Source: Pseudovirgaria hyperparasitica
Taxonomy: Eukaryota
DNA: 64,000 bases
Assembly (NCBI GenBank): GCA_010093815.1
Contig: ML996574.1
Strand: one strand, 5' to 3'
Numbering within the stretch: position 1 is the stretch's first letter; every line of letters begins with the position of its first letter. Position numbers and translations under genes: made by a program. A model generated the notes under the pieces. It saw only the letters and a program-made list of their open reading frames with translations, did not search any database and was not told the DNA's origin. Below, piece after piece: positions 8,810-17,379 of this stretch.

Positions 8810-9545
8810 ATCGTATTAAATACAGCCAGACAATATGTTCTACCACTCAACGCCCCAGAGACCAGTCTGCACTCTAACTTCACCTTATTCATAACACATA
8901 ACATCACACGCAAACACACAATCACTCAAACCCCAAAACAGACAACCTTCCCAAGAAACACAAATAACCTCAGAATCTCACTCAGATGAAATTCTCATGA
9001 ACCAAAAGTGCAAGAACTACATTACGCATAGACATAAATAGACATCACGTGTATAAGTTTGTGGCCCCAATCTTGGAAGACATGCAGCAGCGCATGCGAC
9101 CTATGCACTCTCCTCGTATGATCCTACGCTTTTCCTAGTTCGGAACAACTCAGAGCAAGACCTCTAGCCCCTGATATACACCAATCAGTATAACATGCCC
9201 TGAGAGGTTCTCTGGTGTGCTCCCGAGGGCCGGTAAGTAGCACTGAGTGGAGACAGGAGTGGGAAGCTCCAGATTGCTACCTGAACGACTACTATGAGCA
9301 GTTCACGGCAGGCATTGCTAGTAGGAATCATGCAATGGCGGTTCAGAACCATGTGGGTTAAGAGTGGAAGGACAGCAGCATCACTGGACGAAAGTTTGGC
9401 AGGAGCGGTCCCATCACGTGGAGCACGCACCCGGAACGATACACGAATACACTTTGAGCAAGTCACACAAGACACAACCTGATTATGATGAGAATTACTG
9501 AAGCGTGTACCAAAAACAAAGACGAGAGACTCTCAAACCCCATAT

Positions 9546-10904
9546 TTAACGCTTGCTTCGACGACGCGCCTTGCCATTTGACTTCTTCCCAGCATCGGCA
9601 TTGCCACTACCTCTTCGAACAGTGTAGCCAGCAGCGTCGTTTTCATTTGGCACAACCTCGACCAATCTTACCCCTTCTTCGGGACTCGGTGTCCTGCTCT
9701 CATCAGATATCTCGTGGCCAAGCGAACTATGTCTGTACGTTGAGCCCGGAAGCGCGGGATCAGAGTTCGATGCGGGGAGTCTAGCACCGCCGACGGGCAC
9801 GCGCCTTGTGATAGGCGCGTAGGCGACGTCGGACGATCCAGAAACTACGCGTCGACTGCCGTTTCCTGTCGGATATGGCGCCTGCGGCTGCAGCGCAGGG
9901 TTCTGATGGGTAAACGGATCGTACTGTTGAGCTTGTGGCTGTTGCTGAGCATATGAGTTTGATGACGAGCGAGAACGGTGCATATAGTCAAAGTCCTCAG
10001 CGGAAGGTATAGACTGCCGCGAGCCAGGACGTATAGGAGATGAATAGTAACTTCCTGGCACATCGTATGACTGCGGAGGAGTAGTGTTGCGAGTATTGCT
10101 GCTAGCAGAGCGCGAATTGGGTCTAGAGTGCGATTCGGAGCGCTTGCGAACAGGACCTGGTGATGCCTGCGCCATACCGTAGCTGATAGGGTAGATTTGA
10201 TTACCATTCGGCCCTGGAACCACGAAACCCGGCCCAGGAGCTTGCGGCATATCATCGTAGGATGACATTCGGCTTGTTGCCTTCGATTTTGGTCTAGCTG
10301 GCGAAGCGCTGAAGATAGAGGCGCGAGAGGAAGTTTTCTTTGATCGCAGACTCCCTGTGGCAACGGATGGCTTAGTTTGCTTGATCGGTGGTCGTTGGTA
10401 GGGGGCATCGGCTTGTATTGTTCGCCGGCCCTCAAGCGCAGCCAACTCTTCGTGCGTGAGCTTCACACCAGCTCTACCCTTCGCTGTTGCTTTCCGTATC
10501 CGCTCGATGGCTCGTTGGTAAATAATTTCGTCGTCTTCTGCAGGGTTCAATTGAAGTACGACACCTGGTTGGTCTGCGTAATCGTCGTAGTCCTCCTCCG
10601 AAGACTCAAAGTTCTCTCCATACGCAGGCCCTTCGTCTTGTCTTGAACTCGCTAAATCATATCCATCAAAATACAAGTGATCTGAAGAATAACGCCCCTT
10701 TTGTAACACTGGATCCAATAAAACGCCTTCGGACTCACTGTCCAACTCTTGAAATCTATATACGTCGTTTGGAGGTCTCTCCCATGCCCTTCGTCTCCGA
10801 CCAAGACCTCCATCTGGTGGTCTTCCCCCGGAAGGGGGCAAAGCATAAGGAGTTCGCGGCCGACCACCTAGACCGCCTCCTCTGAAAAAGCTGACTCGAT
10901 GGGT
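9546..10904 (-). CDS. 452-codon ORF of unknown function in the -1 frame of YIP3, with no AUG until 10268; possibly a recoded or spliced C-terminal extension of Yip3
   Basis: The frame is open from just after TAA (10907-10905) to the stop at 9546. Composition is protein-like: acidic patch, amphipathic helix DDEIIYQRAIERIRKA...LTHEELAALE, S/P/R-rich disordered tail and basic C-terminus. The start is undefined. Confidence 0.7.
   Translation of the reverse strand, partial: THRVSFFRGGGLGGRPRTPYALPPSGGRPPDGGLGRRRRAWERPPNDVYRFQELDSESEGVLLDPVLQKGRYSSDHLYFDGYDLASSRQDEGPAYGENFESSEEDYDDYADQPGVVLQLNPAEDDEIIYQRAIERIRKATAKGRAGVKLTHEELAALEGRRTIQADAPYQRPPIKQTKPSVATGSLRSKKTSSRASIFSASPARPKSKATSRMSSYDDMPQAPGPGFVVPGPNGNQIYPISYGMAQASPGPVRKRSESHSRPNSRSASSNTRNTTPPQSYDVPGSYYSSPIRPGSRQSIPSAEDFDYMHRSRSSSNSYAQQQPQAQQYDPFTHQNPALQPQAPYPTGNGSRRVVSGSSDVAYAPITRRVPVGGARLPASNSDPALPGSTYRHSSLGHEISDESRTPSPEEGVRLVEVVPNENDAAGYTVRRGSGNADAGKKSNGKARRRSKR
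10771..10871 (-). other. Putative structured RNA element (two stem-loops with complementary loops) at the YIP3 stop codon
   Basis: Sense-strand pairings: GGTGGTC (10868-10862) with GACCACC (10822-10816); inner CCCCC-TTCC-GGGGG (10838-10825); GGAGGTCT (10811-10804) with AGACCTCC (10778-10771). The loops CTCCTTATGCTTT (10852-10840) and AGGGCATGGGAG (10790-10779) are complementary to each other. Confidence 0.6.
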
Positions 10905-11398
10905 TTATCCATAAAGGCAGCGTGACCCAGAATGCTGACACCGCTAGCTCCGATGAGCCAGAGGACAGTTGCTAAGGGCGAAGAAATAAATGCAAGTGGG
11001 ACGGAAATGCAGATGAGTACGGTGTAGAGCTGCGAAGTCGTAGCACGCACGAAGCCGACATCGAGGTCTTGGCCTTGGAGCTTGCCAATTCCGTACATTC
11101 CACCAACCACAAGGAAGATGAGGAATAGGAGTTTGAGGTTCGTTAGAAGGCTGTAGATCGAGAGCATGACAAAGACAACGGCGTAGTTGCTAGAGAAGTA
11201 TCCCAAGTTGTAATTGACTCTGCTTTGGACTTCGCCGAAATTTTGAGGCTTCGAAACACGCTTCACATCGAGAAATTCGCCAATGGGCTTGAGGTTGGAG
11301 AACCGGCTCCCCAAGGACTGGGTGCGAATGCCATCGAAGCGACCGGAGAGGTTCAGACGCGATGTGATGGCGTCGAGAGGGATGTTGATGCGCGACAT
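10868..11398 (-). CDS. YIP3: Prenylated Rab acceptor PRA1-family protein Yip3
   Basis: 176-aa intronless ORF with RVNYNLGYFSSNY, two hydrophobic hairpins and HAAFMDKPIESAFSEEAV*. Confidence 0.93.
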   Translation of the reverse strand: MSRINIPLDAITSRLNLSGRFDGIRTQSLGSRFSNLKPIGEFLDVKRVSKPQNFGEVQSRVNYNLGYFSSNYAVVFVMLSIYSLLTNLKLLFLIFLVVGGMYGIGKLQGQDLDVGFVRATTSQLYTVLICISVPLAFISSPLATVLWLIGASGVSILGHAAFMDKPIESAFSEEAV

Positions 11399-12465
11399 CG
11401 TGAAAGAGGATTAAAATCTAATAACTTTGGTATTATTAGCAGAGGTTCTCGGTAGTGACCATCGCGCAATGTCTCAAGCATGAGACGAGATGGAGGCTGA
11501 AAAAGGCACATACGTCTCAAAGAGGATTACAAGAACGACAAACGCGCGAAGACAGAGCAGTGTCGACGCAGGTGAACAACGAGCGACAGGCGACGGCGAT
11601 GATGGTGCAGTGAAGATGAAAGAAGTGAAGATGGGAATTGATAGGGGTAGCGACAAGTACAAAATTAGAACAGGCGACGGTGCGAAGTTAACGGCGTGGA
11701 AAAGTTGTTTTAAGCTTTAGTGAGGAAGGACGCGGATCTCCTGAGCCATCAGACACCTGGCCTGACAGCCTGACAGCCTGACAGCCTTGAAGCCTGAGGG
11801 CGATAATCTCCTCACCGTGCTAGGCCGTTTCGGGGTGTAATTGTAAGCACCAGCAGGAACACGAAAACACACGAAATGCTTTCCACGGCGTGACAGACAG
11901 AACAGACAGCAGGCTTCATTCAGGATCTGCTCAGTTGTAGAGTGTAATTCAGTGCAGGGTACAAGTATCAAAGTTTGAAGAGACAGTGATGCAACAACAC
12001 ACATACCACGTACCTTGGAGCTGTCGGTGTGTTGTCCTCAGATATGGCTGACCATTGCAGTGTCCTGCCTATGCACCGCAGCGGCGCCGGAGGTCCGAAA
12101 CGGCGGTAAACACGCTCAATGCAGTGTACTTTGAGCTGCAACCGAGTAAAACAAAGGACGGTGAGGAGGAGAGGTGAAGTTGGCGGTAGACGTCTACGTT
12201 CTGGGGGCGCGGCGGCCTTTTTATCACTCTATGTGTACCAAAAGTTGACTTCTGCATACTGTGCGCCTGATTGGGCCACGTTCGGCATCGTCTGGGGATG
12301 GTCCTGGAAGTCCTAGGGGTTTTAGCGCAGCCTGCCACCGCCCGGGCCCCGGCTTCTGCTCGCCAAAACTTCACAAGCACAAAGCCTAGAGCCATGTCCA
12401 CTTTTCCACTCGGCTCGTGAATCGTGTCTTCTATTTTCTCTCGACAGCCACTCATCCTCTCAACG

Positions 12466-13860
12466 ATGAGGTCCTCATTGCTGCCACTGCTGTTGGTAGC
12501 CCTTGCGGCGCTCGTCGCTGCTTGGAGCAAGGAAGGTCAGTCAACCTAATTCATCTCAATCGCGATGCACTGGAGTTCAAGAGTCCCTGTGTATCTTGCC
12601 AAAATTTCTCGAATCGCAATTGCTTCAAACCATCTCGTCTAAGCTGCAACAAAATACTGACACTGTCTTCCAGACCATGAGATCTTCCGCCTCCACGACG
12701 AAGTCACTGCCCACGAAGGCGCAAACACGACCTTCTACTCCTTCATTGGCGTCTCGCCCTCCGCAACCCAGGACGAGCTCAACAAAGCCTACCGCAAGAA
12801 GTCGCGCTCACTACACCCGGACAAAGCTGTACGTAGCTGGGAAGCTGAATACGCGCTGAAGCACAAAAAGTCCCAGAAAGGCACCAAGCCTGGCGTCAAG
12901 GTTTCGAAGGGACCCTCCAAGAAGGAACTCGAGAAATACCGTGTCGAAGCCTCTGAGCGCTTCGCCCGTCTTGGTCTTGTCGCTGGCGTGCTGCGTGGCC
13001 CTGGTCGCGATCGCTACGACCATTTTCTCCGCAATGGCTTCCCGACATGGCGCGGCACCGGGTACTACTACGCACGCTTCCGGCCCGGGCTGGGCAGTGT
13101 CTTGTTCGGACTGTTCATTGTCGGCGGCGGTTTCGCGCATTATGGTGCCATGTTACTGAGCTGGAAGCAGCACCGCGAATTTGTGGAGCGCTATGTCCGA
13201 CACGCGAGACGTACGGCGTGGGGTGACGAGACGGGAATCCAGGGGCTGGACAACATTGGCGAGACGGTCGCTGCACCACCACCAGCGCAGCCACAGCAGA
13301 GCGAGGAGGCAGACGGCATGCAGCTGCTAAACCGTCGACAAAAGAGACAGCAGGAAAAGGAGGACAAGAAAGCAAGCAAGAAGCCCGGCGGCAAGAAGAG
13401 CGGCAATGGATCGAGCACACCGCGCGGGTCGGGCGTGTCCACGCCCGTGTCTGCGCCCGTCGATGCAACACTCACGTCAGGTCCGGTTGGCGCGAAGAAG
13501 CGCGTGCGCGCCGAGAACGGCAAGACTCTCGTCGTCGACTCTGTCGGCAACGTCTATCTCGAGGAAACGACCGAGGACGGCCAGACGCACGAGTATCTGC
13601 TCGACCCCGAGGAGATCCCACGTCCGTCCATCTACGACACGCTCGTATTCCAGGCGCCGAAATGGGCGTGGCGGAAGTCTGTAGGGAAATTCTTCACTAG
13701 CAGCGACGCTGAGCCCGACTCGCCCGTTGATGAGCCGACTGTCTTGACTCCGACGACGAGCGAGGACGAAGCGGTCGAGAAGCTGAAGGGCGCCATGGCC
13801 GCAAACCCGAACAGCGAGGCCAGGAAGCGCAATGTAAAGAACCGCGCGCACAGGAAATAG
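12466..13860 (+). CDS. ERJ5: ER-type DnaJ (J-domain) membrane protein, Erj5-like; exons 12466-12535 and 12674-13860
   Basis: Signal peptide [20 protein letters not shown], then SKE|DHEIFRL, a J-domain with [31 protein letters not shown] and a TM segment. Confidence 0.85.
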
Positions 13861-14794
13861 CGCGCGTGCGAAGGCTCAGTAGAGTCTTTGTATGTGTCAC
13901 AAAAAAGTGTTTTTGTTTTCGCCCATGTACAGTTTCACCCATAGTGTGTATACATAGAACTTGCCAATTGTATGTATTGCTACAGACAGGTCCTGTGTGC
14001 GTGATCTCCGTTATCGTTTCACCCGTCAAAGTACATCAATAATCCCATCCTTCCGCTCGCTAAGAAGAATTCTAGCCATCCGCCATCCATCATCATCATC
14101 CTCATCCTCGTCATCATCAATCAATCAAGTAGTACAACAACAACAACAACAACAACGACACAAGCAAGAGCGCTGAATCTGGAATCATAATCTAAACCAA
14201 GACTCTTCAAGTATCAAAAGTAAGCATAACAACGAATGAAAATTCCAAAGCACAAGAAAAGAGAAGATCCACACAGTCCCGTTGGATCTTGCATGATAGA
14301 TAAATAAACGAGCAAACAAGCAAGCAAGCATAGAAGAAAGACATGACGCAAACGACGATAAATAAAGACAACAACGACAACACCGAACAAGGGCAGGCAA
14401 AAAAAGGTATCAAACCAGCAAAACAACAGAAAACCGCTTGAAAGTACAGGTTTCATGAGGAAACTGACCATGGTGATGCGATACACGCGGCCAGACAGAG
14501 CCCATCCATATCCTACACAGCCAACAACGCGGCCTAAGTGACTCACAGTCTGCGCGGAACGCCTGCCCCTGATAAGGTAAGGTAGACGCTGCGAGGTAAG
14601 AACGAAATAAACAACCAAAGCAGACCCAAAACCAAAGAAAAAGGGGGTAACGGGGGAGAGAACGAGTAAGACAGCACAACCGCACACGCCGAGAAAAAAG
14701 AAAAAGCACTGCCGAACCCTGTTCAGAAAGCTAGTAACAACAGACTTGATTGCGGAAAAGAGTAAAGGTGGAAAAGGGGTAAGAGGCAACGTCC

Positions 14795-15711
14795 TCAGAC
14801 GAAAAGTCTCGCGAGCAAGCGGTCGAAAAACCCAGTCATGTCAGTCCCTTTCTCCGTCTTCCGCTCGCCGAGATACTCTCGCGCGTCAGCGAGGGCGCTG
14901 CGCACACCACTCACGAAGCTGGCCTCGGCAGTAGCGCTGTCGTCGACTCTGGCCTGTGGTGCGGACGCTGCGGACAGCGCGATAGGGGCAGGGGCATGGG
15001 CGGCTCCCTGCACTAGGTCACCAAACGAGTAGGTGTGTTGGTGGTGAGTAGGGCGGAGGGAATGGAAAGACGAGATTGTTGGGACGAGGGGGGCTGGGTG
15101 TACGGGCTGGGCAGGCAAGGCGAGTTTCTCGTGGCAGCCGCCGAAGCAGTTGCGGTAGAAGCGCAGGATGGCGTTGATGGCGCCGTCGTTGATGTCGACG
15201 ACGCTGCTGTGGGGTGTTGATAGACCAGTTGTGGAGAAGGAGGAGGAGGAGGTCGAGGATGTGGAGATGTTAGATGTGGTGGAGAAGTTACGTCGCATGG
15301 CAGGCATTGGGTCGATGTTCTTCCGGTCTTTCATGTGAGCGTGATACTCCTCCTTTGCAGCCTTGTAGTGGATGCTTTCCATGGCCATCAAGAGCACTGC
15401 CATCGATGCCAGGACGACGGGCCATTGGTTGCATTGACGGCTGAGTGCAATACGCTCGAGACGGGTGAGCAGGTTTCGAAGAAGTTTGGAGGCAAGGACT
15501 GGGACTTCGGCACCAAGCTGGCCACGGACGAAGCAAGGAGTTGGACAAGCCGCGAGGCTGGAGTCAACAGAGTGTAAGGTACCACGAATGATGCTACGGA
15601 CATTCTGGTCTGAGACCGGGATAACGGCGCCGTCAGCCATGTGTGTGAGCACAAGGAACTTGAGAGCAACTAATAGGATGACAGGCTGTTGCACATATGA
15701 GTATACCATCT

Positions 15712-15754
<43 letters not shown>

Positions 15755-17379
15755 TATGGAACTGACTCTGCCTATTTGCACATAAAAGTGGTAGATATTG
15801 CTCAGCACCTTCAGGGGGCTCTGATATAGAGGAAATGACTGGAAATGCTCGTTGACGAGCAGTGTAAGGTGTGCATCTAACTGCCACTGAGCCCCATCTG
15901 TTGAGGCTAGTACGACAGGAAGAACTGCATGGTACAACTCTGTACCATTCGCAGAGGTTGATCCAGGTATTGGAGGCCAAGGGTAGACGATGTGTCGATG
16001 GATTAGCTTGTCAAGCTCTAATGGCCACACGACTTTCATCGGGAGATACATAGAAGGACCAAAGCCCAGGCTGAGAGGCAAGATGTAAACATTAGGAGCA
16101 ACAACATAGGTCCCAGGACCAAGAAACTGATCAAGGCTGCGGTGGCTGGGGTGCCAGGTCAATTGATCTAGTTGCAAGTGGAGTGATCAGCACTAAGCAC
16201 TGGAACATACGAATAGCGAAGCACATGTCCAGTTTGGTTGGAGATGGAAAATGCTTCGAATGTATCGACAGGACATTAGTCCAGCTACGACTAAAGCAGA
16301 TCTCTCTACCAGAGCATCGCCAGAGAGCACATCTGACGTCACTTATAGCAGTTCCTTGGTTCTACTGTGTTGCTGGACTATTGTCCTGGACTTCTTCGAA
16401 AGAAAATGTGACTGAATAAAGAGAAGGAAAAGAGTCGAATGGAATAGAGTAGACCTACTAGAAAGCAGGACGCCAGCGATGTCCTCAAGGAAACTGCCTC
16501 TACAAGGCTGAAGAAGCAGATCGCATTTGAAGTGCTCGACACAGCTCTTACATGGTGTTCCTGGATCGCACTGACAACAAGATAAGTAAGGATAAGTCGA
16601 CCAAATGAGCTGGAGAGTGACGTTAGGAAGCCCACCTTCTCTTTGCGGCGGCGACATGAGTCGCAGGCTCCGATGATACGCATAGCCGCTGCCTCCTTGC
16701 GCGCGATTGGGGAAAGACCACCAGTGCGGCCACGATTTTTCCGGACAACTCCATGGCTATTTGCAGAAAAGGTCACCAGACGTCCAGTCTTGCCCTCGTC
16801 GGGCTTGTACTGGATCCATTTCTGGGCTGAGGCGGAGCTGGCACCGAAAGATGTTCGACGACGTCGCTGTTTGGTCTGCGTTGCCCGTGGAATGCTGATC
16901 GGGGTGGATTCTGCATGTCTTTCAGCGGGTGTAAATTCAGGCGTCTTGGGACGAGACGGCAGGACCAGTTCGTTGTTATCAAAGGACCCAGGCGCACTGT
17001 TCACATTGAAGTAGCCAGGGAATACGCTTTCATCCTCGAGCAGATTCGCGGAATGATATGATGCTTGGTTCGACGTCTGAAACGAACTTGCATTTGTTAA
17101 CGGAGGAGGCATCGACCATGAGTAAGTCGGCACATCCTCATACGACGAAGCACCAGAGAAGGTGTAGCTCATAGGAAAGCTCGCACCACCAGGACCAGCA
17201 GGGAGATGATCTGACAGACCAGAGCTCCCATCGCCAGAGCGGTGTATGTGTGCTTCATTGTCCAAATCGACAAGGCCTTGCCAGTCCGTATCGTCAAGCT
17301 GGAAGGTATCGTCGAAGTTGAGTTCGGGATTGGACGGTCTGCTGTCCATAAAGCGACTGGCGTTGAGCTGCCATGTCAT
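14795..17379 (-). CDS. Zn2Cys6-domain transcription factor-like protein, multi-exon (start uncertain; may be the downstream MDSRP ATG)
   Basis: GACDSCRRRKEK|CDPGTPCKSC is split by an intron. Long N- and C-terminal exons (16378-17379, 14795-16177) are joined by GT-AG introns. Confidence 0.75.
15715..15750 (+). repeat. (GA)18 microsatellite, probably intronic
   Basis: Direct read. Confidence 0.95.

Follow-up and report, generated by a model that had tools for sequence, protein, structure and literature searches.

The YIP3 locus and its second reading frame

The window, a stretch of 64,000 nucleotides (nt) from contig ML996574.1 of Pseudovirgaria hyperparasitica (GenBank assembly GCA_010093815.1), carries on its minus strand a YIP3 gene whose stop codon is surrounded by complementary sequences. 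These sequences are considered here as the probable 3' part of a programmed −1 frameshift signal. All positions refer to the window, and features of the YIP3 messenger lie on the minus strand, so that their coordinates descend from 5' to 3'. The YIP3/PRA1 open reading frame (ORF), identified from the ORF list, its translation and Pfam, is 176 codons in length (11398–10871) and ends in a UAG codon at 10870–10868 (ORF-list entry 10868..11398). The encoded protein has a PRA1 domain (Pfam E-value 2.9e-40, residues 32–172 of 176). Frame analysis and homologues define a 3' ORF (9546..10904, minus strand) that counts 452 codons between its stops and that, relative to YIP3, is in the −1 frame. It shares its first 34 nt with the last of YIP3, and an ATG in this frame comes no earlier than 10268, at codon 213.

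The conserved ORF beyond the YIP3 stop codon is in the −1 frame, and in a minority of loci in the +1 frame. Frame 0 is open for just 71 codons past the UAG and is not conserved. A protein search with the 3' ORF translation found 32 homologues, in Pezizomycotina fungi, and a Pfam search matched it to no family. The peptide FFRGGGLGGRPR crosses the stop codon in the window and in seven of the 14 homologues that were fetched. To these we added orthologous loci from metagenome contigs, which were scanned with the YIP3 protein alone; the best 80 of 107 relatives were kept (66–82% identity). The long ORF is in the −1 frame in 65 of these 80 loci and in the +1 frame in four; six have an intron after the stop codon, and the contigs of the other five are too short.

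The candidate shift site, U_UUU_UCA (10883..10889, minus strand), was recognized from the sequence, its run of five U's being located at codons 169–171 of YIP3. Of the 66 sequences with a −1-frame ORF, the window included, 58 have UUUUUCC at this place and eight, among them the window, have UUUUUCA. At the loci where the two ORFs overlap least (22 nt), the U-run comes just one codon after the −1 frame has opened, which is what a shift site requires.

Two sequencing runs cover the locus. Their kind is unrecorded, and we take them to be RNA because their contigs skip two GT..AG introns. One transcript contig of 2109 nt (9468..11662, minus strand) spans the 5' untranslated region (UTR), YIP3, the UAG codon and the entire 3' ORF. 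Its sole joint removes a 5' UTR intron of the YIP3 mRNA, and it has zero letter differences from the window; the junction between the two ORFs is neither spliced nor edited in it, with the proviso that contigs may miss rare isoforms. The 5' UTR intron is 89 nt in length (11425..11513, minus strand) and appears in contigs of both runs as a joint with CT..AC ends on the plus strand.

Public gene models of 429–701 amino acids fuse PRA1 to the 3' ORF (P0005, P0009, P0013, P0015, P0019, P0021, P0026, P0028, P0031, and P0032). In the five sequences compared (P0005, P0009, P0015, P0028, and P0032), the joining introns are located at species-specific, differing positions. Such fusions are probably artefacts of annotation in which an intron takes the place of the frameshift. 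The many public models that link PRA1 and the 3' ORF by an invented intron are probably wrong, a reminder for annotation.

Pairings around the YIP3 stop codon

Pairing was examined in an alignment (A1) of 60 distinct sequences, namely the window and 59 of the 80 loci; duplicates, the six intron-bearing loci and the five loci on short contigs were excluded. Slid pairings and 500 shuffles served as controls for the stems. Stem S1, recognized from pairing in A1, is formed on its 5' side by GAGGAG and GCGGUC (10871..10882, minus strand), which are the Glu-Glu-Ala-Val codons that end YIP3, the last four sense codons. Its 3' strand (10847..10861) consists of GGCCGC (10861–10856), a GAA bulge (10855–10853) and CUCCUU (10852–10847). 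The 12 base pairs (bp) of S1 are paired in 95.8% of cells, as compared with 42–77% for slid controls. Four pairs have changed on both sides, a level of compensation matched by 0 of 500 shuffles, and RNAalifold recovers S1 unaided.

Stem S2 pairs (G)GUGGUC (10862..10868, minus strand), which is located in the loop of S1, with GACCAC(C) (10816..10822, minus strand), which lies within the invariant block GGGGAAGACC. An earlier reading made from the letters of the window (the sequence-only reading) had described these strands, GGUGGUC at 10868–10862 and GACCACC at 10822–10816, as the first stem of an element with two hairpins and a kissing loop that starts at the UAG at 10870–10868. Stem and stop codon are indeed found at these positions on the minus strand. 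S2 is paired in 96.9% of cells in A1, against 15–64% for slid controls, and its covariation score was reached by 0 of 500 shuffles. Two of its pairs covary. The pair 10867–10817 is GC in 36 rows, AU in 13, GU in eight and CG in one, and is unpaired in two, while the pair 10866–10818 is UA in 53 rows and CG in five, and again unpaired in two. An A at column 37 of the alignment is opposite a U in 13 of 13 cases. One clade (81% support) holds three states of the same S2 pair, namely G:C (the window), C:G (L031) and A:U (L033, L017 and L019).

As the 5' strand of S2 sits in the loop of S1, the two stems together would form an H-type pseudoknot. In this geometry, loop 1 is the UA(G) of the stop codon, loop 2 is absent, and loop 3 has ~24 nt. 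The majority nucleotide at third positions of YIP3 codons has a frequency of 0.40–0.67 over most of the gene, rising to 0.81 at codons −10 to −6 and to 0.93 at codons −5 to −1. Downstream, column conservation is 0.8–0.99 until about column 100, just past the 3' strand of S2, and then 0.42–0.55. The third positions of the GGA, AGA and CCA codons are invariant in 60 of 60 rows, as against the typical YIP3 majority of 0.4–0.67.

The loci in which the ORF downstream lies in the +1 frame retain GUGGUC GGCCGC ... GGGAAGACC, which is read there in another frame. The retention of the nucleotides despite the different reading frame argues for a constraint at the RNA level. In one such row of A1 (L053), the strands of S2 are complementary at six of six positions. 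Six further +1-frame loci (L021, L034, L042, L051, L054, and L056) have an intron of 50–56 nt, of the form GTGAGT...YAG, set precisely between the UAG and GUGGUC, ~3 nt past the YIP3 stop. In the five of these whose contig extends to the 3' exon, the S2 strands are complementary at six of six positions across the intron, so that splicing would rebuild the pseudoknot.

Small insertions occur at columns 34–40 and 55–57 of A1, namely GUC after the UAG in loop 1 (L024 and L044), GAC (L063), and an insertion in the 3' strand of S1 (L026). All of those in L024, L044, L026 and L063 are confined to loops or to the bulge, so that the stems stay intact.

The other pairings of the sequence-only reading, all present in the window, fare differently in A1. 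The inner hairpin CCCCC-UUCC-GGGGG (10825..10838, minus strand), located in loop 3 of the pseudoknot, is CCCC-N3-GGGG in most orthologues and is missing in the four +1-frame rows. Its pairing (95.7% in A1) is near-invariant and confounded with Pro-x-Trp-Gly codons. A 4-nt spacer (AGAU) separates S2 from stem-loop 2 (10771..10811, minus strand), the second hairpin of that reading, in which GGAGGUCU (10811–10804) pairs with AGACCUCC (10778–10771), its letters being as described. The 12-pair kissing match, which includes three G-U pairs and a single bulged U, is literally present as well. Conservation and covariation in orthologues hold for the first stem of the sequence-only reading, which is our S2, and not for its stem 2 and kissing loop. 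Stem 2 is paired in 36.4% of cells, and the kissing pairs in 50.9%, as compared with 50.2% for shuffles and with equal values for slid controls. Sequence conservation collapses where stem 2 begins. This stem is specific to the sequence of the window and lies outside the conserved element. Among 63 distinct orthologous segments, the 75 nt past S2 show no excess folding (mean z −0.13; 6 of 63 below −2). CUCCUU has its conserved partner upstream, in the GAGGAG of the YIP3 coding sequence, and not in the loop of a second hairpin; this GAGGAG belongs to the lower part of S1 and lies beyond the region considered in the sequence-only reading. What pairs in stem 2 and in the kissing loop is Gly codons (GGN) with Pro or Arg codons (CCN, AGA), a complementarity due to chance and confined to this sequence.

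The published YIP3 frameshift

A −1 frameshift in YIP3 with a pseudoknot has been known since 2013. In Podospora anserina, the long YIP3 protein results from a programmed −1 frameshift at U_UUU_UCC, at codon 170 (Malagnac 2013, PLoS One 8:e73772, PMC3777964); parts of that paper underlie the statements made about it here. Twelve P. anserina cDNAs were unspliced save for an intron in the 5' UTR, and a fusion with green fluorescent protein (GFP) showed the long protein. The signal was described as a stem-loop, "possibly a pseudoknot", 2 nt downstream of the shift site; its stem 1 bears a 3-nt bulge that is conserved. The arrangement is shared by Pezizomycotina, the 3' ORF being in the +1 frame in Capnodiales (where the site is UUUCU) and in Ophiostomatales, and the pseudoknot was said not to be conserved in Capnodiales (PMC3777964). 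The review of Atkins et al. 2016 (PMC5009743) repeats this account, in the part of it drawn upon, and the part of Espagne 2008 (PMC2441463) drawn upon lists frame-shift genes and gives no structures. A literature search returned no structural study of the YIP3 signal beyond PMC3777964 and the review PMC5009743.

The window shares with P. anserina YIP3 a YIP3/PRA1 5' ORF, a long and poorly conserved 3' ORF in the −1 frame, a U5 site at codon 170, a bulged stem 1 that adjoins the shift site, an unspliced junction, and a 5' UTR intron (89 nt in the window and 173 bp in P. anserina; PMC3777964). S1 matches the published stem 1 with its conserved 3-nt bulge. Minority lineages with a +1 frame and UUUCU in place of UUUUU occur both in the published survey and among the present loci. 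The two differ at the shift site, which is UCC in the published gene and UCA here, and in the second stem, whose supported form here reaches GACCAC, ~40 nt downstream. The present UUUCU/+1 loci match the description of Capnodiales yet keep S2 and the upper part of S1, in contrast to the loss reported in PMC3777964.

The Podospora "pseudoknot" fragment cloned in 2013 is 59 nt in length and ends in ...CGCCCC(AT) (PMC3777964). This end corresponds to about column 78 of A1, ten nt short of GACCAC. As the fragment is described in that paper, it ends before GACCAC, and the published second stem is accordingly unlikely to be S2. What is possibly new is that the 3' strand of S2 lies outside this fragment. 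As a second stem for the pseudoknot, the first stem of the sequence-only reading is credible and may be unpublished. When the YIP3 fragment was cloned behind the slip site of infectious bronchitis virus (IBV), it failed to stimulate that site as the IBV pseudoknot does (PMC3777964).

YIP3 belongs to the very small number of cellular genes of eukaryotes in which a programmed −1 frameshift is conserved, and its signal is odd in having a non-canonical heptamer, a near-zero spacer, and a low efficiency in a reporter. The pseudoknot of IBV, a coronavirus, is of the H-type, with a stem 1 of 11–12 bp, a stem 2 of 6–7 bp, a loop 1 of 2–3 nt, and a long loop 3. The proposed YIP3 pseudoknot resembles it in this general H-type layout, and PMC3777964 notes that the G-C-rich base of stem 1 is reminiscent of IBV. 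The two differ in that IBV has a canonical U_UUA_AAC and a 6-nt spacer, whereas YIP3 has a non-canonical heptamer and a spacer of 0–2 nt. Edr/PEG10 is retroelement-derived, shifts at a canonical slippery site, and bears no sequence relationship to YIP3. Its likeness to YIP3 consists in being a cellular gene with a −1 frameshift and a 3-nt bulge in stem 1 of the pseudoknot (PMC3777964, Discussion). Readthrough pseudoknots of the murine leukemia virus (MuLV) gag-pol type are similar in that a structure stands beside a UAG codon. They differ in that readthrough needs a downstream ORF in frame 0, and here frame 0 shuts 71 codons on, the conserved ORF occupying the −1 or +1 frame. Readthrough of the UAG, one of the viral processes named in the sequence-only reading, was excluded as a way to the 3' ORF for this reason.

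Interpretation and alternatives

We consider it probable that the programmed −1 frameshift signal of YIP3 (Rab-GDI displacement factor) in Pezizomycotina has its 3' part in the stretch around and beyond the UAG codon, with the pseudoknot of S1 and S2 as the stimulator; the window contributes one more orthologue. The evidence obtained here consists of the way the ORFs are arranged, a transcript contig that is unspliced at the junction, the conservation of S1 and S2, and the covariation counts. Frameshifting itself is taken from the literature on P. anserina, and we infer that it occurs in the present organism. The sequence-only reading was right in kind in proposing a cis-element that controls access to the downstream ORF and that involves a pseudoknot; its architecture was not, as CUCCUU pairs with GAGGAG in S1.

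In the mechanism we propose, most ribosomes would terminate at the UAG and produce the 176-amino acid YIP3. A minority would slip back one base on the U-run of U_UUU_UCA (10889–10883) and read on in the −1 frame through the low-complexity 3' ORF of ~450 codons, giving a long YIP3 isoform. With UCA in the A-site, slippage of the P-site tRNA-Phe alone would be more plausible than tandem slippage. The stimulator would begin right 3' of the U-run, where S1 (12 bp, with its bulge) and S2 might act as a pseudoknot barrier. Should the lower six pairs of S1 already be melted when the ribosome is on the U-run, a core of 6 + 6 bp would be left, located 6 nt from the heptamer.

Several observations weigh against this reading. 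The heptamer U_UUU_UCA departs from X_XXY_YYZ, and its A-site codon cannot fully re-pair in the −1 frame. The spacer between heptamer and S1 is 0–1 nt (2 nt in PMC3777964), as against the canonical 5–9 nt, and would come to 6 nt only with the lower six S1 pairs left out of account. UCA is also unsuited to the published argument for tandem slippage by tRNA-Ser(IGA), and frameshifting in a yeast reporter was just 1% (PMC3777964). The RNA nature of the sequencing runs is presumed from two intron-skipping joints. As for S2, covariation is confined to two of its seven pairs, with four pairs invariant and hence uninformative, and the seventh pair, between the G of UAG and C 10816, is broken in nine of 60 rows and uncompensated. 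In a tree built from YIP3 coding sequence outside the signal region, the A:U state falls in four groups that are joined at weakly supported forks. An independent-pairs test has at most five pairs, one of them on well-supported branches, which puts significance out of reach. Both strands of S2 also code in the 3' ORF (Gly-Gly and Arg-Pro-Pro), and their conservation may be partly due to constraint on the protein.

Folding of single sequences weighs on the same side. The expectation from the sequence-only reading that the region should fold better than shuffles was not borne out: its 101 nt have a minimum free energy (MFE) of −40.0 kcal/mol, as compared with −37.56 ± 3.65 for dinucleotide shuffles (z −0.67), and 55 of 200 shuffles were as good. 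The MFE structure of these 101 nt employs neither stem 1 nor stem 2 of that reading. With 231 nt of context, z reaches −1.70, and the folding is equalled by 14 of 200 shuffles. The nested MFE structure of the 124-nt region (−49.5) is built from pairs other than those of S1 and S2.

S2 appears to be the true second stem. A more detailed proposal built on it is tentative, and we would put its being right in every part at slightly less than even. In this proposal, the long-range GUGGUC/GACCAC pairing would be the second stem of an IBV-like pseudoknot with a loop 3 of ~24 nt and the stop codon in loop 1. It would be kept in the UUUCU/+1 lineages, and omission of its 3' strand from the 2013 reporter fragments would explain both the 1% reporter value and the failure at the IBV site. 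The core of 6 + 6 bp would be at 6 nt if the lower part of S1 is melted. The comparison of 60 sequences suggests a better-supported second stem, absent from the earlier constructs, and so a testable construct for research on recoding.

The chief alternative for the second stem, which we judge unlikely, keeps a real frameshift signal and assigns the stem to a local pairing in the loop, GGUG with YGCC (5' of the CCCC run), inside the 59-nt fragment; S2 would then be a by-product of the Gly-Gly and Arg-Pro-Pro codons. GGN GGN and CCN CCN codons are inherently complementary, S2 covariation is without significance in the independent-pairs test, and the ending of the 2013 fragment in ...CGCCCC(AT) implies that its authors placed both stems inside it (PMC3777964). 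The local pairing, which is our reconstruction of the second stem from the published parts and the only one obtained within that fragment, is paired in 87.0% of cells in A1, but it displays no compensation. Columns 37 and 72 fail to pair in 19 of 57 rows, namely those with A or C at column 37, and the covariation score of the local pairing is equalled by 461 of 500 shuffles. In the rows that break the local pair, it is the long-range S2 partner that changes so as to keep pairing (AU in 13, CG in one). The third positions of GGA AGA CCA are the same in all 60 rows, when the YIP3 majority is 0.4–0.67, and +1-frame rows without the YGCC-CCCC segment retain GUGGUC/GACCAC nonetheless. The full model of the sequence-only reading, in which two hairpins and a 12-bp kissing interaction stimulate recoding in this species, is very improbable. 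All of its pairings are present in the window, where stem 2 alone has −12.0 kcal/mol, both stem-loops together have −33.3, and the 75 nt past its stem 1 have a z of −1.62. Against this, the pairing frequencies of stem 2 (36.4%) and of the kissing loop (50.9%) in the 60 sequences are the same as those of shuffled and slid controls, conservation collapses at the start of stem 2, the CUCCUU strand is occupied by the conserved S1, and the 101 nt fold no better than shuffles. The two-hairpin, kissing-loop architecture is therefore abandoned, since its stem 2 and kissing loop are not conserved in A1.

A last alternative, to which we give marginally less credence still, dispenses with frameshifting: the 3' ORF would be reached by a rare alternative splice, by termination and reinitiation, or from a non-AUG start past the hairpin, and the structure would serve that route. 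Many public gene models do link both ORFs by an intron, but the fused junctions vary between species, and no joint crosses the stop codon in the contigs, which drop rare forms; in P. anserina, 12 unspliced cDNAs and a GFP-tagged long protein stand against it (PMC3777964). Four loci have the 3' ORF in the +1 frame, as do the six intron-bearing loci when the intron is discounted, which would suit a frame-independent route. The opening of the 3' ORF frame one codon before the U-run at the shortest-overlap loci is, by contrast, what a shift site needs. The codon before the CCCC run is AUG, GUG, UUG or ACG in most rows read, but it is UCG, GCG or GCC in L006, L071, L075, L078 and L072–L074.

Three other candidates were set aside. 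An AUG or near-cognate start just past S1 was dropped, as seven loci carry UCG, GCG or GCC there. A frame-joining intron in the window, sought by eye, would be GTGTCA...GAG (47 nt); it has poor splice sites and no joint in the contigs. Hairpin excision of the Ire1 or tRNA type and a hop from GUC to GUC, both also considered by eye, give the wrong frame.

Elsewhere in the window, the transcript contigs skip a 138-nt GT..AG intron (12534–12671) in a gene on the plus strand. They are also broken at ~14083–14167 and ~15686–15766, places that were flagged as skipped repeats and that may represent more introns of the neighbouring gene.

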